IMG/VR virus record: IMGVR_UViG_3300032219_000848
Span: 1-64,000 of that record
Origin: a virus
Lineage: Duplodnaviria > Caudoviricetes
DNA: 64,000 nucleotides
Reading direction: 5' to 3' (one strand)
Shown: positions 48,356-57,128 of the stretch, one piece after another
How positions within the stretch are numbered: the first letter of the stretch is position 1
How the letters are laid out: each line of letters begins with the position of its first letter
Made by a program: the position numbers and the translations under genes
Notes under the pieces: model-generated
The model's input: only the letters and a program-made list of their open reading frames with translations
Database searches by the model: none
Told to the model about the DNA's origin: nothing

Positions 48356-48704
48356 TGGTTGGTTTTATTTTTGGTTTTAATATTCTTATTTGTATTGTCA
48401 ATATATCTATAGCATCCTGTATCTTTTTTACATCTACAGTTGTATTTAGTTCTAATTGTTTTTGGGCTTTTTCTAATTTAGCTTCTAATGCTGCTAATTT
48501 CTTTATTGCCTTCTTATTATTAAATATAATACGTCCAAATCCAGAAAATTCTAAAGAATGATTTGTGTCCATTGCCTCATTAGCTGATTGAAACTGATGA
48601 TTAACTACAGTTTCTATAATCTTCTCTGAGACAGCAAGCTTTATAGACAATGCCCTAACAAGGTATTCCTTATGGGACATACTCTTTGGCTTATTATACT
48701 CCAT
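48348..48704 (-). CDS. IHF/HU-like DNA-binding protein
   Basis: Helix-helix followed by SLEFSGFGRIIF, an HU-like signature. Confidence 0.55.
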   Translation of the reverse strand: MEYNKPKSMSHKEYLVRALSIKLAVSEKIIETVVNHQFQSANEAMDTNHSLEFSGFGRIIFNNKKAIKKLAALEAKLEKAQKQLELNTTVDVKKIQDAIDILTIQIRILKPKIKPTND

Positions 48705-49056
48705 GCTCTAACTTTATCTCTAATGTAATGTTCTCTGAGAATGGTAGAATAATAACAGGATTAACTTTAATCTTTGTCCCATCCTTAACTAATACACCAA
48801 CCTTCTTAAGCTTTGATATAATGTTGTTGATTGTAGGAGATGTAGAATTATACTTATCACAAAACTCTTCCCTTATACTACTATAAGAAATATTACCATG
48901 TATAGCTGTAAATGCTACTAATTGTATTTCTCTTGTTGTAAGGTTTAGACTATTAACTGTAGATAATAAACTATAATACTTTTCAGCTATAGCATAATTA
49001 TCATCTACACTCCTTTTTAACTTTTGTACAATTACCTTTTTCTTAATCTCTTCCAT
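48694..49056 (-). CDS. Winged-HTH DNA-binding protein (RepL-like)
   Basis: LTTREIQL...TSPTINNIISKLKKVGVLVK...IKVNP. Confidence 0.6.
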   Translation of the reverse strand: MEEIKKKVIVQKLKRSVDDNYAIAEKYYSLLSTVNSLNLTTREIQLVAFTAIHGNISYSSIREEFCDKYNSTSPTINNIISKLKKVGVLVKDGTKIKVNPVIILPFSENITLEIKLEHGV

Positions 49057-49092
49057 ATGTAGTTGGCATTCTATAGAATTATAGACGCTATA

Positions 49093-49242
49093 TTAAGAAT
49101 TATATTTGGTAAATACAAATGAAAGAGAAAATATTATTAGAGAAATCTCTATAGTGTACATATCATACCATCTAATTTCTTTCACTCTAAACGATGCACC
49201 TATTCCAAAGTCTGTCAATGTATTCACTTTAAAATATATCAT
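49093..49242 (-). CDS. Small protein (49 aa) with hydrophobic C-terminal segment; first gene of the late block
   Basis: MIYFKVNTLTDFGIGASFRVKEIRWYDMYTIEISLIIFSLSFVFTKYNS*; lies just downstream of the promoter at 49283. Confidence 0.5.
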   Translation of the reverse strand: MIYFKVNTLTDFGIGASFRVKEIRWYDMYTIEISLIIFSLSFVFTKYNS

Positions 49243-49274
49243 ATATAAAAAGTTTTTATTTACTAGCCCCCCTT

Positions 49275-49439
49275 TATCCCCCCAAAGGTAATAGAACTTT
49301 TTGAATATGCAAAATTTTTGTTCGGGGTGAAAATTTAAAATTTTTTTACATCCCCCCTAGGCATTATGTTCATGAGAGAGGAGTCCACTTCAGATGATAT
49401 CCCCTTAGGGTAATTAGGAGGGTGACGTTATCCCCCTGA
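49275..49439. repeat. Four ATCCCC(C/T) motifs in the strand-switch region
   Basis: ATCCCC starts at 49276, 49350, 49399 and 49430 in otherwise AT-rich DNA. Confidence 0.6.
49283..49313 (-). promoter_or_regulatory. Consensus Bacteroidetes promoter heading the late block
   Basis: TTTG (49313-49310)-N19-TACCTTTG (49290-49283). Confidence 0.75.
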
Positions 49440-49442
49440 TAT

Positions 49443-49465
49443 CGTTGGCAGACGTATAACTGTCA
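49443..49465 (+). promoter_or_regulatory. Two-stem/pseudoknot element copy 1
   Basis: cgt-tggcag-acg-tataa-ctgtca; ends 10 nt before the ATG at 49476. Confidence 0.5.
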
Positions 49466-49475
49466 TATTACCCAT

Positions 49476-49676
49476 ATGAAAAATTATCAAAAAGTACAAA
49501 GAGTGTTCCAAGTATTTCTACTAGTCATCTCACTCTTAGCATTAGCACAGATTTGTTATTTAGTCACAACTAGAGACTATAGTAACAATGATCTGATTCT
49601 CATTGGCATCTTCTGCATGCCAATGATTATGTCAGTGTTCCTTGCAATTGATTTACTAAAACAAAAACTAAACTAA
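49476..49676 (+). CDS. Small two-TM membrane protein (first early gene)
   Basis: 66 aa with two hydrophobic helices. Confidence 0.65.
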   Translation: MKNYQKVQRVFQVFLLVISLLALAQICYLVTTRDYSNNDLILIGIFCMPMIMSVFLAIDLLKQKLN

Positions 49677-49684
49677 CAACTAAA

Positions 49685-49712
49685 CCCTTGGCTGGGGGGC
49701 AATACTCAGCCA
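49685..49712 (+). promoter_or_regulatory. Two-stem/pseudoknot element copy 2
   Basis: ccc-t-tggctg-gg-ggg-caatact-cagcca; ends 8 nt before the ATG at 49721. Confidence 0.5.
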
Positions 49713-49720
49713 CAATTATT

Positions 49721-50062
49721 ATGTTATTCCCAATCTTAGTAACAAAAGTGGTAGCAAGACATACTTACTATCTTGGCCATTCACACACAGACTTAGGATA
49801 CTACAGAGTGGTCATTGATAATGATGTGATGCTTAATGACTTTGGACATTCAAGAGATTATCCATTGTTCGATCGTGATTGTGCTGACATCAAGCCATTC
49901 GTAGCACTATGTAAGCTTGATAAGTATGAGCGATGGTCAGTGAAGAGAGTAGATCATGACTATCGTAAGTTCACAGAACATCACCAAGTATGGAAAGATT
50001 CGTTCAGCAGATCCAACACCTTTAGTATTACAGTTAAATCAATCAATTCACAATTAAATTAA
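49721..50062 (+). CDS. Hypothetical early protein
   Basis: In-frame ATG at 49721 preferred over the TTG at 49688. Confidence 0.55.
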   Translation: MLFPILVTKVVARHTYYLGHSHTDLGYYRVVIDNDVMLNDFGHSRDYPLFDRDCADIKPFVALCKLDKYERWSVKRVDHDYRKFTEHHQVWKDSFSRSNTFSITVKSINSQLN

Positions 50063-50068
50063 ATTAAA

Positions 50069-50332
50069 ATGAAAAATCAATTCGAGTACCAATCAATCTA
50101 TTTTACAGATGAATACATGATGGAAGCAGATTATGACATGGCATTAATGATGAAAGATGACTGCATCAAACAGTTAATGGCATTGCGAACATTGCTACCA
50201 TTAATGTTACCTGATGAAACATTGCACTTCAGAGAGCGAGTTAGAAATAATCTAAAAGCTGCACAAGCTGACATTGATCATTATGAATCAGTTCATGGCA
50301 AGCCAAAAGGTTCATTAGAATCAACCATTTAA
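50069..50332 (+). CDS. Hypothetical early protein
   Basis: 87 aa with an A-rich leader. Confidence 0.6.
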   Translation: MKNQFEYQSIYFTDEYMMEADYDMALMMKDDCIKQLMALRTLLPLMLPDETLHFRERVRNNLKAAQADIDHYESVHGKPKGSLESTI

Positions 50333-50347
50333 TCAATTCACAACTAT

Positions 50348-50372
50348 TCCTAGCGTGAGGGCTAAATCACGC
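50348..50372 (+). promoter_or_regulatory. Two-stem/pseudoknot element copy 3
   Basis: tcc-ta-gcgtga-ggg-ctaaa-tcacgc; ends 11 nt before the ATG at 50384. Confidence 0.5.
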
Positions 50373-50383
50373 ATATTAAACAC

Positions 50384-50722
50384 ATGTACTTAATAACAAT
50401 CTATTACGGATCCTTTGAAAATTACGGATCATCTGAACATCCTGAAGTATTGTTCACTGCTTATGATAAAGATCATAAAAAGGTAATCATTAACACAGAG
50501 TTATTACCTAAAGAATTACTGACTGAGGATCAAAGCGTTCGCATGCCATTCCATTGTTACACATCATGTAGAAAGAGGAATGATAAATGGGAAAGAATTG
50601 CAGACAGATGCTTTAGTAATTACGAAGATGCATTTGAATACGCAAACATGATTATTGAAGGTCTTGAATACGAACTTCATGAACTTACAGGAATAGTTCA
50701 GCAGAATAAATCTTTAAATTAA
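50384..50722 (+). CDS. Hypothetical early protein
   Basis: 112-aa ORF. Confidence 0.6.
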   Translation: MYLITIYYGSFENYGSSEHPEVLFTAYDKDHKKVIINTELLPKELLTEDQSVRMPFHCYTSCRKRNDKWERIADRCFSNYEDAFEYANMIIEGLEYELHELTGIVQQNKSLN

Positions 50723-50740
50723 TTAATCAATTCACAACCA

Positions 50741-50764
50741 ACCCTTGGCAGAGGTCAACTGCCG
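50741..50764 (+). promoter_or_regulatory. Two-stem/pseudoknot element copy 4
   Basis: acc-ct-tggcag-a-ggt-caa-ctgccg; ends 10 nt before the ATG at 50775. Confidence 0.5.
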
Positions 50765-50774
50765 TAATACAAAT

Positions 50775-51476
50775 ATGAATGCATACATAATTCAATCAGG
50801 ACATTTCTCTAAAGCAGGGAATTTCATGGGAATCTCAGTAAAAGGTGAAAGGATTCACATCTACAAGAAGGACATTATTAGACTATTTCCACAAGTTGGA
50901 ATAGTCTATCGATGCTTGGGACAATACGAGAAGGAACTAGTCAAGTTACCATTCTACTGTCTAGCAGAAGAGAAGACATTTGATCAAATTGATTTCGATG
51001 GAAATAAGACAGGAGAGAAATTTACTAGACTTACAGCCATTGAGATACGTGAGCATGAGTACGAGATTAAGACTGTTCTAGTTAATTCTAGAATCGTGAG
51101 TCTAGAGATGGACTTACATTGCTGTAAACAAGACTATGATAAGTTACAGGAAGAGTATGATGCACTTGTAGCAAAAGTAGAAGACTATAATGCTAATGCT
51201 GAACTAAATGAATGCAGGATGGTGATTGATCATCTCACAAATCAGATTGAGGATCTAGAAGAAGAGAATGATAAACTTACTCGTGAGCTACAAACAGCAA
51301 ACTGGAACTATGAGTATGCTCAGTCAGAACGTGAAAGACTAGAGCTATTATGCAAAGAGCATGAGTATACAATAATAGAACTGTTAAAAGATAATGATGA
51401 ACTAGAGAAGTACAAGAAAACATTTGAGACAGTTCTGACATCATATCATATTAATCAATTAATTAATAACGTTTAA
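50775..51476 (+). CDS. Early paralog A: GNF.G...GERIH.Y domain plus coiled coil
   Basis: The N-terminal ~100 aa align with the ORFs at 51879 and 52440; heptad-rich C-terminus; ATG at 50775. Confidence 0.7.
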   Translation: MNAYIIQSGHFSKAGNFMGISVKGERIHIYKKDIIRLFPQVGIVYRCLGQYEKELVKLPFYCLAEEKTFDQIDFDGNKTGEKFTRLTAIEIREHEYEIKTVLVNSRIVSLEMDLHCCKQDYDKLQEEYDALVAKVEDYNANAELNECRMVIDHLTNQIEDLEEENDKLTRELQTANWNYEYAQSERERLELLCKEHEYTIIELLKDNDELEKYKKTFETVLTSYHINQLINNV

Positions 51477-51489
51477 ACAATAAATAACA

Positions 51490-51792
51490 ATGGCAAATTA
51501 CCTAACATTATTTGACAAGACCTCTAAGGAGGCAGCATCTCTCATTAGCATTGATGAGAGAATCTGTAAAGAAGTGTATCACGTAGAACCTCATGATAAA
51601 GATTGGGGATCTGATGTGTTTGATTGGTACAATACAATTGGCTTCCAATTATCAACTGGTAAAAGCATAGAAGAAGTTAGACAACACTATGTCACTTCTG
51701 ACTTGTGGACAGAAGAACTTCCTACAATACTTCCTGTAATAGAGTTCTTAGAGAATAATTACACACCAAAAGCATCATGGCGTTGGTCATAA
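51490..51792 (+). CDS. Hypothetical early protein
   Basis: 100-aa ORF. Confidence 0.65.
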   Translation: MANYLTLFDKTSKEAASLISIDERICKEVYHVEPHDKDWGSDVFDWYNTIGFQLSTGKSIEEVRQHYVTSDLWTEELPTILPVIEFLENNYTPKASWRWS

Positions 51793-51878
51793 TGTTCATT
51801 AGAAAATCCTTTTAATAAAATAAATTAATTAATAAACAACTAAAATGGGAACAGGAGAAATAGCTGAACAAAAAAACA

Positions 51879-52262
51879 ATGAAGAATTACGTAATTAACA
51901 ACGGATCATTTACTGCACAAGGTAACTTCTCAGGATACACTGCCATGGGAGAACGCATTCACATGTATGCTAGACAGATGTCATCACTAGACTGGGAAGC
52001 AAATGAGGATGTGAAGTATCCATTCTATGCAATTGCAAAGGAGAAAGAGATTGAGCCACTAGGAACTGATGGCAAGCCAACTGGAGAGAAGACAATGCGA
52101 TTAACAGCATTGTCAGTATTCAAGAGTAAAGCTGACATCACGAGTGCTAGATCCGAAGCAGCATTGCTTGACATTGAGATTACTAAATCCATTCAAGAGC
52201 AGGCAGAGAAGGTTGGCATTAGTCAAGATGTCCTTGACGTGCTACTAGCAGCATCAGTGTAA
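51879..52262 (+). CDS. Early paralog B
   Basis: 127 aa, 101/127 identical to paralog C by manual alignment. Confidence 0.8.
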   Translation: MKNYVINNGSFTAQGNFSGYTAMGERIHMYARQMSSLDWEANEDVKYPFYAIAKEKEIEPLGTDGKPTGEKTMRLTALSVFKSKADITSARSEAALLDIEITKSIQEQAEKVGISQDVLDVLLAASV

Positions 52263-52270
52263 TGCTAAAC

Positions 52271-52331
52271 GGGAGAGGAAATGTTCTCTCCCATTACTAA
52301 CCAAGAGAGGGGCACATGCCTCTCTCTTTTT
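52271..52331 (+). terminator. Tandem hairpins/intrinsic terminator
   Basis: gggagagga/ttctctccc, then agagagggg/cctctctct followed by TTTTT. Confidence 0.7.
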
Positions 52332-52439
52332 CCCTCGTCTTGTTCATCAGACTACATCCCTATAGATATGGGAGTATAACTAATATGTAGTTATATATCT
52401 AAAACTTATATTTATAAACAATTTAAAATTAAAATTATC

Positions 52440-52823
52440 ATGAAAAATTACGTGATTAACAATGGTACGTTTACAGGTCAAGGAAATTTCTCAGGCTATA
52501 CAGCTATGGGAGAGCGTGTGCACATCTATGCTCGTCAGATGGCTTCATTAGGATGGGAGATGAGCGAAGATGTAACTTTTCCTTTCTATTGCATTGGTGC
52601 AGAAAAGGAAATTGAGCCATTAGGTTTAGATGGTAAGCCTACAGGTGAGAAAGCAATTCGTCTAACTGCTCTATCTGTATTTAAAAACAAGGCAGATATC
52701 ACTCAAGCTCGTAGTGAATCTATTATGTTAGACATAGAGATTAACAAATCTATTGCTGAACAAGCTGAGAAAGTAGGTATTAGCCAAGAAGTGTTAGATA
52801 CCTTATTAGCTGCTTCTATTTAA
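52440..52823 (+). CDS. Early paralog C
   Basis: 127-aa tandem duplicate of 51879-52262. Confidence 0.8.
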   Translation: MKNYVINNGTFTGQGNFSGYTAMGERVHIYARQMASLGWEMSEDVTFPFYCIGAEKEIEPLGLDGKPTGEKAIRLTALSVFKNKADITQARSESIMLDIEINKSIAEQAEKVGISQEVLDTLLAASI

Positions 52824-52837
52824 TAGTGTGTGTAATA

Positions 52838-52869
52838 CAAGAGGGGGAATAAATCCCTCTCTTGTTTTT
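52838..52869 (+). terminator. Intrinsic terminator
   Basis: caagaggggga/tccctctcttg followed by TTTTT. Confidence 0.7.
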
Positions 52870-53106
52870 ATATATATAGTTAAACAGAAGATTATATAGG
52901 TAAAATAATAAATACATATATAATATTTGGTTTTAAAAAGTTTTTACGCGGAGCTTACCAAATATTCTTTGGTTTTTATATGTTTGGGAAAGCATTAAAT
53001 GGTGGTAGTGTAACCCTTCAACAGATAAATAGGTAAATTGAATAAACCTAAAAAAGACATAAGTTTAAATTATATAGCATTAATAACCCTTTTAAATAAC
53101 AAAGAT

Positions 53107-53334
53107 ATGTATGCAAGCAGAATGGGAGTTCATAATATGTTCTCTAATCAAAATGAGTCTGAATATGTCATTATTAATAATGAACATAATAGTCATCGTG
53201 CAGCTCAGTTTAATATAGCTTACGAAGGTGGGTTTTTAACTCATGTAGGTGATGGCTTTTTTAAAGTAAAGCGTATTGTTGCCAATAATCTAGGTCTTGT
53301 CATTATGTGTGATGCAGATCAAAGAATGTATTGA
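53107..53334 (+). CDS. Hypothetical protein
   Basis: ATG at 53107 preceded by the CCTTTTAAATAA leader. Confidence 0.55.
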   Translation: MYASRMGVHNMFSNQNESEYVIINNEHNSHRAAQFNIAYEGGFLTHVGDGFFKVKRIVANNLGLVIMCDADQRMY

Positions 53335-53338
53335 GTAT

Positions 53339-53370
53339 AAGGGAGAATAATTCTCCCTTTTTTTTTTTTT
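53339..53370 (+). terminator. Intrinsic terminator
   Basis: aagggagaa/ttctccctt hairpin followed by a T13 run. Confidence 0.75.
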
Positions 53371-53393
53371 CAACCTTTTAAATAAATAAAGAA

Positions 53394-53582
53394 ATGAATA
53401 GAGAACATATACATAAACGTATTAATAAGATTAGTAATAGATTACAGAAGTATAAAGCTAACTATGATACAATGTATTCTTCACAATATAAACTAGAGAA
53501 GAACAGAATAGCTCGTGTTGATCTTGTTATTAGTAGAAATGAGAAAATGTTAGCTTATTATCAATCTTTACTTATTGAGTAA
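53394..53582 (+). CDS. Hypothetical basic helical protein
   Basis: 62 aa. Confidence 0.55.
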   Translation: MNREHIHKRINKISNRLQKYKANYDTMYSSQYKLEKNRIARVDLVISRNEKMLAYYQSLLIE

Positions 53583-53817
53583 TGCATCAGTCTATCTTCC
53601 CAAAGGATAGCAAACATACGTACCTCCAAGAATAGCCTATTGTGGTGATAGGCAACGTGCGTTTGAATGCAGAGGGAGATTTTATACAAGCTACCTTAGT
53701 AGCATACTTTTATTAGTTGGCAGATCTAGTTATCAAGAACTGTCTATCTTTTATGGTGGAAGGATAAAACCATTATTTATAACATTGTATTTTCAAACCT
53801 TTTAAATAATAACAAAA

Positions 53818-54126
53818 ATGAAAACATTTAATGATTTAGAATTTACTGAAATAGTAAATGACTATACTGTTAATGGTAAAAGAGCACGTATGATGTTTGA
53901 TAATGGATATGGTGTATCTGTTGTACAATCAGACATGACATATGGTGGTAAAGAAGGACTATATGAATTAGCTGTATTAGATGATGAAGAAGGTGGTCAG
54001 ATCTATTATACATCAATAACAATGGATGTGTTAGGTTGGCTTACAGAAGACGATGTAACAACACATATGTCTGAAATACAAGGCTTACCATTATTAACAG
54101 CTGAAACTGATAAATCAACCTTTTAA
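53818..54126 (+). CDS. Hypothetical phage protein
   Basis: 102 aa; FDNGYGVSVV...YGG..GLYELAVL...DVLGWLT, a pattern that looks like a common small phage protein family. Confidence 0.7.
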   Translation: MKTFNDLEFTEIVNDYTVNGKRARMMFDNGYGVSVVQSDMTYGGKEGLYELAVLDDEEGGQIYYTSITMDVLGWLTEDDVTTHMSEIQGLPLLTAETDKSTF

Positions 54127-54137
54127 ATAATACATAT

Positions 54138-54344
54138 ATGTTAATTACAATGACTAGTATGATATCAAAAACTACATCCACTAAGGATGTTGATATTACA
54201 ATAGAACAACTATTTAGAATAAAGCATGAAAAAGAGCTTATACAAAATGTTGTTCCACATCTGTCTATAGAAGATAGAGAGTTTTTAATATCTGGTATAA
54301 CATCAGAAGAATGGAAAGAATTGTTTCACACTATAGAAGACTAA
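54138..54344 (+). CDS. Hypothetical phage protein
   Basis: 68 aa; LIQ...P.LS...REFLISGIT.EEW..LF. Confidence 0.7.
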   Translation: MLITMTSMISKTTSTKDVDITIEQLFRIKHEKELIQNVVPHLSIEDREFLISGITSEEWKELFHTIED

Positions 54345-54434
54345 ATGAAAAACGAACTTATGGAATTGTTATGTACCATCATCTTCATATTGATTGTTGT
54401 GATGTTTAGTATTCTTATTGTTTCAACTCTTTAA
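54345..54434 (+). CDS. Very small single-TM peptide (29 aa)
   Basis: MKNELMELLCTIIFILIVVMFSILIVSTL*; abuts the upstream stop. Confidence 0.45.
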   Translation: MKNELMELLCTIIFILIVVMFSILIVSTL

Positions 54435-54449
54435 ACTTTTTAAATCATT

Positions 54450-54653
54450 ATGAAAGCAATTATTATCATTCGTTGGTTCATCATTATATATATAGTGACA
54501 TTTTTGTGTCTTGATTTGTACATCATCACTAATTCAGATGTTGTTACAAAGTATGGCTGGGATAATATACAATTAACATTATTGTGGCTATTTGCTTTTA
54601 TGGCTGCATCTGTGTTATATGTTACAATTAGTACAAACCCAAGGAGACAATAA
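54450..54653 (+). CDS. Small two-TM membrane protein
   Basis: 67 aa with two hydrophobic segments. Confidence 0.6.
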   Translation: MKAIIIIRWFIIIYIVTFLCLDLYIITNSDVVTKYGWDNIQLTLLWLFAFMAASVLYVTISTNPRRQ

Positions 54654-54713
54654 TGTCTCTTTGGTTTAAATTAGTAAACAGATTTTTTATTCACATATTT
54701 TAAATAAACAAAA

Positions 54714-54929
54714 ATGAGAGCACTTTTAAAAAAACAAGAAGACAAAAAAGAAATAGTTAGATATTGTACAATTGTATCGCCTGTACAAGTAGAAGAAGCA
54801 CGAAAATCAGGTGATTCTAGAGCAAAGATTCTTGTAGAAACCCACATAAATACACGTGGTAAAAAACAAGAACCGTTCTACAAAAAATTAGATACAATTG
54901 AAGTGGAGTATTCACAACTGAAATTTTAA
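54714..54929 (+). CDS. Hypothetical protein
   Basis: 71 aa. Confidence 0.6.
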   Translation: MRALLKKQEDKKEIVRYCTIVSPVQVEEARKSGDSRAKILVETHINTRGKKQEPFYKKLDTIEVEYSQLKF

Positions 54930-55028
54930 TTGTATAAGAAATTCACCATTACCTAAAGCACAAAGTCTCGGTGTGAGTAGGGAGAGAGCAAATCATAGTT
55001 ATACAAGTTGGTGTGAGTATAACTATAT

Positions 55029-55133
55029 AGTCAGGTGGCGGAATAATGGTAGACGCAGGAGTTCTGAAAGCTCCACGTAAGATGTAGCGAGAGCTTTGAT
55101 CATCTCATGCAGGTTCGAATCCTGTCCTGATTA
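55029..55133 (+). tRNA. Aberrant tRNA-like RNA (Leu/Ser-type D arm, non-canonical anticodon loop, 34-nt extra arm)
   Basis: Acceptor AGTCAGG/CCTGATT+A; D arm TGGCGGAATAATGGTAGACGC; T arm GCAGG-TTCGAAT-CCTGT; middle hairpin GGAGT-TCTGAAA-GCTCC; no encoded CCA. Confidence 0.7.
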
Positions 55134-55166
55134 CTAAAATTATTTTTTAACTTAAATTACACACAC

Positions 55167-55394
55167 ATGTCAAATCACGTATCATTGTATTCTTCTCTAT
55201 TACATAGAAAAGGATATGCAAAGAAGTCAGCTTGGTTAGAATTTATATTCAATGACCAATGTACACACATTGAACTTATTGTTCAAGGAGTTACTTACAG
55301 TTTTTCAGATGTTAGTCATCTACATACAGACGAAAGTCTTATGCATGATGAGATATTTGATGATAACTGTCTGTTAGTTCCTACAAACATATAA
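55167..55394 (+). CDS. Hypothetical protein
   Basis: 75 aa. Confidence 0.5.
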   Translation: MSNHVSLYSSLLHRKGYAKKSAWLEFIFNDQCTHIELIVQGVTYSFSDVSHLHTDESLMHDEIFDDNCLLVPTNI

Positions 55395-55476
55395 GATTTA
55401 TGTGTGTAGTCCTGAGCATGACACAAAACTGCTCAATTATTAATTCTTTTACATTTAATATAGCATTCTTATAAAT

Positions 55477-55647
55477 ATGAAATATTTAGATAAGTTTATG
55501 GAAGTATACATTTGGTTAGCTATGGCTATTCTTATGTTGTTAGCATGCGTACAGCACATTGATGCTGGTAATACATACACAGGATTTTGTATGTTGTTTA
55601 TAGGAATAGTATTCTTATATATGTTTAAAAAGAATAGGTTTAATTGA
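55477..55647 (+). CDS. Small two-TM membrane protein (56 aa), not in the ORF track
   Basis: MKYLDKFMEVYIWLAMAILMLLACVQHIDAGNTYTGFCMLFIGIVFLYMFKKNRFN*. Confidence 0.55.
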   Translation: MKYLDKFMEVYIWLAMAILMLLACVQHIDAGNTYTGFCMLFIGIVFLYMFKKNRFN

Positions 55648-55675
55648 TTTTCATAGAAGGGTTTAAGCGTAAAAT

Positions 55676-55711
55676 AAAGGGCTGATGTTATACGTCAGTC
55701 CTTTTTTGTTT
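55676..55711 (+). terminator. Intrinsic terminator
   Basis: aaagggctgatg/cgtcagtccttt followed by a T-tract. Confidence 0.7.
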
Positions 55712-55734
55712 TCCCTTCTAATAACAAACATTTT

Positions 55735-56025
55735 ATGGAACAATTAAAATCTGGTGTTAAGATTAAATTTATAGTGGGTGATGATTTCTATGTATATGAA
55801 GTTAATCCTAGTTATTTAGAATTAAAAAAAACTTCAGGAGAATATAGTAATGCTGCTATATTCAACGCTCTTGGTATTAGTGAAGATGAAAAATACGAAT
55901 TAGCTACAAAATATTATGGCTATCCTGTATCACAAGGTGTTTGGCCTTCATATAGAGATTATGATACAGCTACAGAGTTAGTTAAGCATTTATATGATTT
56001 ATGTAATATTCACAATACTAAATAA
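55735..56025 (+). CDS. Hypothetical protein
   Basis: 96 aa. Confidence 0.6.
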   Translation: MEQLKSGVKIKFIVGDDFYVYEVNPSYLELKKTSGEYSNAAIFNALGISEDEKYELATKYYGYPVSQGVWPSYRDYDTATELVKHLYDLCNIHNTK

Positions 56026-56112
56026 ATAAAAAATGGAAGATTTAATTTGTCAAATTTCATACTTTCTATTAGGAATATTAATAGGTATGAAAATTCACAG
56101 TTTATTACGAAA

Positions 56113-56475
56113 ATGAGAGCAATAGTTATTGACGCATGGTCCAACGATGTAAGGGAGGTTACAATTGTTGATGAAGCTAGTATGTTAGAACAAATGTACG
56201 AGCTTATTGGATGTTCAACTGTAGAATGTGTGAGTTTACCTGGAGGTAATGACCTTTGGGTAGATGAAGAAGGACTTTTGTTCTTAACAGAAAACAGTAG
56301 ATTCTTTACATATGGGCAAGTTATGCCTATACATGGAAGAGGAATTATTTTAGGATTAGATCGTAAGACAGGAGAATCTAAGAGCACAAAACTGAAACTG
56401 GAAGATGTTACAGATGGTGTTGACTTTTATTCTATAGATGAAGTACGACAACTAGTTAGAAAAGAAGAGTATTAA
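56113..56475 (+). CDS. DUF3846-like protein
   Basis: LEQMYELIGCSTVECV...LWVDEEGLL...IHGRGIILG pattern; ATG at 56113 coupled (ATGA) to a 27-aa ORF at 56033-56116. Confidence 0.6.
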   Translation: MRAIVIDAWSNDVREVTIVDEASMLEQMYELIGCSTVECVSLPGGNDLWVDEEGLLFLTENSRFFTYGQVMPIHGRGIILGLDRKTGESKSTKLKLEDVTDGVDFYSIDEVRQLVRKEEY

Positions 56476-56492
56476 TTTTTAAAAACACACAA

Positions 56493-57128
56493 ATGGAAAA
56501 GATTACATTTAATCATGACTCAATCGAAATCTACGAGTCATTTAGTTTAACAAAAGAACAGGCTGATAAATTAGAGTCTGTTATTGTATTTGAATCAATC
56601 GTTGCAAATTCTATTATTAATAGAGATTACAAAGATGATGAAAGTTCAGCACCTCGTGTATTACGTACAAAAACAGGTGTGTTGTCACGTTCTCTAAAGT
56701 ATGCAGCTACAGAAATGGAAAGATTATTCTTAACATTTGTATTTGCTACAAGAGCTCAAAATGCTAACACAATATTATCTGCTGTAGATGCATTTAATGA
56801 TGCATCTACCAACTATGAGTTAAAAGCTAAGTTAATTAAACATGCAGAAAAACATTTTGGTGATAGAATGTCTAAAAGCATGATTGAGAAACATCTTGAA
56901 GAAATGATAGCTAAACAAGGTAGACCATTGAAGCAATTTAAGAAACTTGTTCGTCAAGTGGAGAATTCTAACTATGATTTTAGTTTATTTAAAGCTATGA
57001 TTGATGAAGAAGAATCATCATCATATATCATGGAAATCATAGAAGATACAATGCAAAGCATTGAAAGGCTTAAAGATGAAGGGATGTTTAAAATGGGTTC
57101 TCGTGATGATGAGAATGATGAAGATTAA
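56493..57128 (+). CDS. Hypothetical helical protein
   Basis: 211 aa. Confidence 0.65.
   Translation: MEKITFNHDSIEIYESFSLTKEQADKLESVIVFESIVANSIINRDYKDDESSAPRVLRTKTGVLSRSLKYAATEMERLFLTFVFATRAQNANTILSAVDAFNDASTNYELKAKLIKHAEKHFGDRMSKSMIEKHLEEMIAKQGRPLKQFKKLVRQVENSNYDFSLFKAMIDEEESSSYIMEIIEDTMQSIERLKDEGMFKMGSRDDENDED

Follow-up and report, generated by a model that had tools for sequence, protein, structure and literature searches.

Compact folds in front of genes are known from several phage and bacterial systems. The 5' pseudoknot that acts as translational operator of T4/T2 gene 32, which encodes the phage ssDNA-binding protein, is located approximately 40-70 nt upstream; it nucleates cooperative binding and serves this one gene only. 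The rpsO fold of E. coli is specific to its gene as well; it contains the ribosome-binding site, and S15 binds to it. In this study, we analyzed the first 64 kb (hereafter the window) of the 102,177-bp virus record IMGVR_UViG_3300032219_000848, in which four small hairpins, W1-W4, stand just in front of the start codons of small genes next to a strand switch. Stem-loops are also found in the promoter early stem-loop elements (PeSLs) of T4-type phages, where they have been shown to terminate transcription and are combined with a Shine-Dalgarno sequence and an early promoter of sigma-70 consensus (PMC2839356; PMC4122927). The hairpin promoters of the N4 virion RNA polymerase have a 5-7 bp stem and a 3-nt loop, lie on the template strand and number three per genome (PMC4496689). 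The virion polymerase of the crAss type prefers single-stranded templates, and no common motif was present upstream of the early transcripts in one studied crAss-like phage (bioRxiv 10.1101/2020.03.07.982082); therefore, there is no direct precedent for the elements described here.

W1-W4 share with the PeSLs that they are repeated intergenic stem-loops with G-T pairs just upstream of small ORFan genes in a plastic region, and that close relatives differ by indels and gene replacements at these motifs. Unlike the PeSLs, they carry no recognizable promoter, Shine-Dalgarno sequence or T-run (the tail of W2 is weak), and the hairpin keeps a constant distance of 8-11 nt from the ATG. The likeness to the N4 promoters consists of small hairpins at early genes in a phage injecting its own polymerase; however, the loops here are 7-12 nt long, the wobble pairs fit the non-template strand only, and the polymerase family is different. 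As with the rpsO pseudoknot, a compact fold directly precedes the start region and takes the place where a Shine-Dalgarno helix would form; however, the fold of W1-W4 does not include the start region, and these elements are generic and portable. Should the elements be pseudoknots, they would resemble the gene 32 operator as small H-type knots in the leader of a phage mRNA, with a first loop of one nucleotide, and both W4 and L7, a hairpin of a related contig, precede genes for OB-fold proteins. In contrast to gene 32, many copies are located before unrelated genes, and the second stem is putative and only 3 bp long. The four hairpin leaders of the window form a real but narrow family that is not catalogued and is possibly pseudoknotted; they are best filed as a variant of the regulatory-cassette joints of phages.

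Four hairpin leaders next to a strand switch

A leftward block of large virion genes in the window, including those for a 3,906-amino-acid protein and the large terminase, is followed by a strand switch at 49.06-49.47 kb and by a rightward block opening with small ORFans. In the terminase comparison, the closest cultured phage was a Leptolyngbya phage with 40% identity, and Cellulophaga and gut crAss-like phages came next, which points to a distant, uncultured crAss-like phage as the source virus. The Bacteroidetes host presupposed by the original prediction is tentative. Neither PHROGs nor Pfam gave a usable match for the genes g1-g8. We infer from the genome layout only that the hairpin-led genes are early genes.

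The original prediction had described a six-member family of intergenic elements with two interleaved stems. All six strings were found where it had placed them, and the first four end at the distances from the ATG that it had given (Table 1). These four copies are real and far beyond chance. When all 114 open reading frame (ORF) starts of the 102-kb genome were considered, a GC-rich 5-bp hairpin ending 7-14 nt upstream was present at four, namely those of g1, g2, g4 and g5, which are four of the first five rightward genes. This count is independent of the strict descriptor that we also applied, which consists of a 3-bp stem, 1 nt, a 5-bp stem, 0-1 nt and a loop of 3-10 nt, with at most one G-U and at least 6/8 G/C. 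Over 102 kb and both strands, the descriptor matched W1-W4 only, compared with 0.7 matches in shuffled genomes and 0.0055 in shuffles of 49243-50780, although these shuffle figures overstate the significance since the descriptor was built from the copies themselves. The looser layout of the original prediction did not stand out in the same way, as it matched 106 times in 49.4-55.5 kb versus 96 +/- 8 times in dinucleotide-shuffled sequence. The hairpins are GC-rich stem-loops of 5-8 bp inside otherwise G-poor, unstructured intergenic leaders. An Rfam 15 scan of 48500-56500 (E-values up to 10) returned only a tRNA-like match and chance-level rows, with nothing over W1-W4, in agreement with the claim that the family, dispersed before four of the first five rightward genes, is an undescribed one.

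Table 1. Hairpin leaders, rejected copies and associated features of the window. S2, main stem; S1, possible second stem; distances run to the start codon.
Feature	Position	Strand	S1 arms	S2 arms	ATG	Remarks
W1 (copy 1)	49443..49465	+	49443-49445/49452-49454	49447-49451/49460-49464 (one G-U)	49476 (g1)	Ends 10 nt before the ATG; linker 49446; A-rich loop 49455-49459
W2 (copy 2)	49685..49712	+	49686-49688/49695-49697 (one G-U)	49690-49694/49707-49711	49721 (g2)	Ends 8 nt before the ATG
W3 (copy 3)	50348..50372	+	50349-50351/50358-50360	50353-50357/50368-50372	50384 (g4)	Ends 11 nt before the ATG; stem sequence unlike the other copies
W4 (copy 4)	50741..50764	+	50743-50745/50752-50754	50747-50751/50759-50763	50775 (g5)	Ends 10 nt before the ATG
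Copy 5 (rejected)	53712..53744	+				73 nt from the next ATG
Copy 6 (rejected)	55409..55435	+				41 nt from the next ATG
Exact 13-mer leader motif	50331..50343, 50041-50053, 50725-50737	+				3-5 nt upstream of W3 and W4; also heads the hairpin-less g3 leader
g1-g7	49476..52262	+				Seven-gene ORFan block carrying the elements; ends at canonical terminators 52304-52325

Copies 5 and 6 of the original prediction were rejected. Both were missed by R1, a covariance model made from six copies, and neither is in the strict register: copy 5 has no S1 there, and copy 6 is an isolated weak hairpin (-6.5 kcal/mol, z -1.5) whose counterpart in the related contig L002 keeps 4/6 pairs as read by eye. Copy 5 is located inside a 101-nt segment (53678-53778) missing from contig L003, the non-coding region of which is otherwise 92% identical.

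The main stem and a possible second stem

The first of the two interleaved helices, S2 (P2 of the original prediction), is supported by covariation. It is paired in 35/35 cells over all seven intact family types, and three of its five positions covary: position 2 is G-C, G-U or C-G, position 3 is C-G, U-A or G-C, and position 4 is A-U or U-A. The pairs were counted by script on a manual register because MAFFT misaligned W3, L2 and L7. The same is visible between orthologs. W2 and its ortholog L2 in contig L005 (3542-3568) keep S2 via two double compensatory changes, and in L4 of the same contig (4341-4364), the ortholog of W4, a G-C pair of S2 is replaced by G-U, the middle S1 pair has changed in a compensatory manner from C-G to T-A, and the loop is rewritten. 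Identity is 63-77% in the hairpin blocks versus 83-100% in the adjoining coding DNA, and the pairing is kept.

The G-U pairs present in W1, L4, W2 and L2 fit the + strand only, as had been proposed. The predicted fold of W1 has an energy of -6.2 kcal/mol on the + strand and -2.2 kcal/mol on the - strand, while W2 and W3 reach -13.8 and -9.7 kcal/mol, respectively; for both W1 and W2 the + strand is more stable by 4-5 kcal/mol. When folded in 75 nt of context, the hairpin persists and the start region stays open.

For the second stem, P1 in its original form with flexible spacers was found at 43% of 2,396 control hairpins and therefore carries no weight, so that the claim of covariation in both stems held for P2 and not for P1 as it had been defined. 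A fixed register gives a different picture. Here three bases, one linker base and the 5-bp arm are followed, 0-1 base later, by three bases complementary to the first three. In this register S1 is present in 6/7 family types with three different middle pairs (C-G, G-C in W1 and U-A in L4, thus two compensatory variants), and only 24 of 5040 partner permutations match this result. The strict S1 occurs at 5.5% of the control hairpins as against 4/4 window copies, with a register that was picked after the copies had been seen. The support for a re-registered 3-bp second stem is suggestive.

An S1-linker-S2 layout with a one-nucleotide linker and 0-1 nt in the second loop is the classical geometry of coaxially stacked H-type pseudoknots. 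The second loop of the elements permits such stacking, with a first loop of 1 nt and an A-rich third loop of 4-9 nt. The elements may therefore be drawn as H-type pseudoknots of 21-28 nt, in which the 3-bp second stem would stack coaxially on the main stem; we regard this as possible but doubtful. The pseudoknot is unproven because S1 does not hold in two types (L7 and L1) and because, in W2, the minimum-energy fold uses the 3' strand of S1 to stretch S2 to 8 bp, so that the two stems compete. ViennaRNA, it should be added, does not model pseudoknots.

The second stem bears on a reading in which the elements are mini-pseudoknot operators, S1 and S2 forming jointly and being recognized by a trans-acting factor. 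A candidate for such a factor is encoded nearby. The products of g7 (51879-52262) and g8 (52440-52823) and the N-terminus of that of g5 (50775-51100) form a conserved early family, and a g7/g8-type gene is the first rightward gene in most relatives. The structural model shows an OB-fold barrel with a long helical hairpin (predicted local distance difference test, pLDDT, 86). Its best structural neighbors are the ExoVII OB domain, cold-shock domains, single-stranded DNA-binding proteins and S1 domains at Z 5.4-7.1, and Foldseek found no match in the PDB for the g7 model at E <= 0.001. The family is probably a single-strand nucleic-acid binder, as judged from the model, which makes a gp32-like operator conceivable: the OB-fold proteins would switch early translation off or autoregulate it, in the way T4 gp32 acts at its own leader. 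The fixed-register S1, its rarity among control hairpins, the loop geometry and the position of W4 and L7 at the head of OB-fold paralogs all fit such an operator. However, the copies are related by descent, the register was chosen with the copies in view, a 3-bp stem is thermodynamically marginal by a rough estimate, the minimum-energy fold of W2 spends the S1 3' strand on a longer P2, two types lack S1, W1-W3 precede unrelated genes, and the proposed factor is a predicted binder with only modest Z-scores. We therefore consider the operator unlikely. In a broader form, the elements would be genuine H-type pseudoknots, each with stems of 3 bp and 5 bp separated by a single linker base and with an A-rich third loop, and would constitute a generic portable initiation or operator module in a phage that has no Shine-Dalgarno sequences before its genes. 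Such a module would either dock on the ribosome platform where the Shine-Dalgarno helix otherwise lies or be bound by a phage OB-fold early protein that shuts off the first genes together; this, too, appears rather improbable.

Portable leaders at cassette joints of one lineage

The family is narrow. Sixteen related IMG/VR contigs share the flanking genes, yet in them the g7 homolog follows the strand switch almost directly, and the g1-g6 block is common only to one lineage among the relatives (L005, L023-L025, L030-L032, L034-L035 and the short contigs L036 and L037). These contigs, about a dozen, all come from freshwater or environmental metagenomes, and they supply the types L1, L2, L4, L4b and L7 as well as identical copies of W3. 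Five further contigs, all of the L005 lineage and with identical hairpins, came from a metagenome scan with the g5 alignment, and protein searches with g1 and g4 added five short ones. IMG/VR scans with g1 and g6 gave no further contig, and no match was obtained by blastn of 49-53 kb or tblastn of g7 against 50,697 phage records. In 16 more distant relatives the model R1 detected no member, and it also left W3 unrecognized; as it is sequence-driven, these blanks do not exclude diverged members. GGCAG-type hairpins seen in L010, L014 and L015 are apparently ordinary terminators and were not counted as members. Because the family is so far restricted to one freshwater lineage (about a dozen contigs) and the second stem is still putative, we see in it a modest lead rather than a general principle.

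Within this lineage, hairpins and genes are combined freely. The hairpin L2 heads, with the same sequence, four unrelated genes in different contigs. Conversely, homologs of g5 are preceded by W4, L4 or no hairpin, homologs of g4 by W3, L2 or none, and one g7 homolog by L7, while its near-identical neighbors have no hairpin. In L024, an 80-amino-acid gene is inserted directly upstream of L2 relative to L005. W3 is 100% identical in L036 and L037, where the g4 protein is 53% and 85% identical, respectively. The spacing between hairpin and ATG nevertheless remains the same even before different downstream genes. The comparison of the contigs thus shows that cassettes of genes beside the hairpins have been gained, lost and exchanged. 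Hairpins before unrelated genes at constant spacing speak for a generic leader module at cassette joints and not for a gene-specific operator, and W1-W4 together with L2, L4, L4b, L7 and the degenerate L1 are, by their sequences and surroundings, one family of portable leader modules at cassette-shuffling joints. The elements would accordingly be useful as markers of the exact sites where these phages swap small gene cassettes.

The same observations can be read as hairpins without a function of their own, either hitch-hiking palindromic remnants or homology patches for cassette recombination. That homologous genes do without the hairpins agrees with this, as do the confinement of the family to a narrow clade and the near-identical copies across contigs. 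It would leave unexplained the compensatory changes in S2 between both orthologs and paralogs, the strand bias of the G-U pairs and the constant distance to the ATG across different downstream genes, and we consider it very unlikely.

Possible role of the leaders and neighboring features

We favor, at a probability of roughly 0.55, a single family of portable leader modules with an effect at the mRNA level, on translation start or stability. The structure would act after transcription. The hairpin would occupy the position of the Shine-Dalgarno helix on the ribosome platform and thereby most likely set the initiation of the downstream cistron; it may also form a barrier to decay or processing on the 5' side of that cistron within the polycistronic transcript. 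An mRNA-level role of either kind is favored by the + strand bias, the constant spacing to the start codon and the open start regions. By eye, no Shine-Dalgarno sequence was seen in any leader of the region.

Several points weigh against this reading. The folding z-scores of the single elements are modest (-1.1 to -2.6), and in L1, which is orthologous to W1, most of S2 has decayed, leaving 3 bp. Some g4, g5 and g7 homologs have no hairpin, and the element is therefore dispensable for those genes. As there are effectively two lineages, part of the apparent conservation may be due to recent recombination, W3 being identical in three contigs.

Another possibility is transcription punctuation of the PeSL type, in which the hairpins would be attenuators, terminators or parts of promoters for the virion RNA polymerase and each cassette its own transcription unit. 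Like the T4-type PeSLs (PMC2839356), the elements are intergenic, repeated, located before ORFans and found at recombination joints, and the preference of the crAss-type virion polymerase for single-stranded templates (bioRxiv 10.1101/2020.03.07.982082) would suit hairpin promoters. However, a T-run is missing after W1, W3 and W4, and only W2 passes a terminator-like scan, with a weak tail, although five canonical + strand terminators are located nearby (52304, 52837, 53339, 54639 and 55676). W1 cannot terminate an upstream gene because it precedes the first gene of the block. No sigma-70-like promoters were found at the four leaders, and the region contained 40 such matches versus 39.5 in shuffles; the consensus used was the sigma-70 form, which may not be that of the host. 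As for a promoter in single-stranded DNA, which the original prediction had listed among the candidate roles, the template strands of W1 and L4 would have A-C mismatches, the loops are of variable length and longer than the 3 nt of N4, and transcripts starting after the hairpin would have a leader shorter than 10 nt. This role is thus disfavored, and transcription punctuation as a whole seems distinctly unlikely. The antitoxin mimic suggested earlier is disfavored as well, as a ToxI-like tandem array (repeats of about 36 nt) was not found in 49-56 kb, where the copies are dispersed and differ in sequence, and Rfam gave no match.

If the mRNA-level reading is correct, a compact portable RNA module of this kind would be a simple, synthesizable test object for translation control without Shine-Dalgarno sequences. 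It would also bear on the expression and subsequent silencing of the first genes in crAss-like phages.

Other repeated sequences accompany the leaders. Variants of the 13-mer motif (Table 1) were found in leaders of the L005 lineage, both hairpin-bearing and hairpin-less. The motif has no sigma-70-like match, and a 14-mer scan of IMG/VR for it gave chance matches only, among the matches listed. Readings of the motif as sigma-54-like or as integron attC-like were dropped after inspection by eye, since neither the spacing nor the core sites agree with them. Another leader motif, made up of GGGAACAGG, a short spacer and CTGAACA, is present at 51846-51870, at approximately 66,555-66,580 of the genome and at 5385-5415 of L005. 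Both g7 and the gene at 66.6 kb have their ATG about 10 nt after the end of the motif, and in L024 the hairpin L7 takes the place of the motif before the same gene, g7.

The small-gene region after g1-g7 uses yet another repeated leader, a 12-mer before four ATGs in 53.1-54.1 kb. In the g1-g7 block (49400-52400), the GC content is 0.34-0.39 with near-zero GC skew, compared with a GC content of 0.28-0.31 downstream (52600-56000). The GC contrast and the different leaders are consistent with separately acquired modules.

Two further features of the region were observed. A 105-nt tRNA-like sequence at 55029-55133 scores 40.6 bits against the Rfam tRNA model (gathering score 29), while ARAGORN calls no tRNA in the window. 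The strand-switch region at 49243-49442 (3100-3300 in L005) holds four ATCCCC-type repeats and hairpins of C-runs and G-runs. Conservation in the L005 lineage covers the last of these repeats and the bases preceding W1, and in L002 the motif sits in the loop of a 7-bp hairpin.

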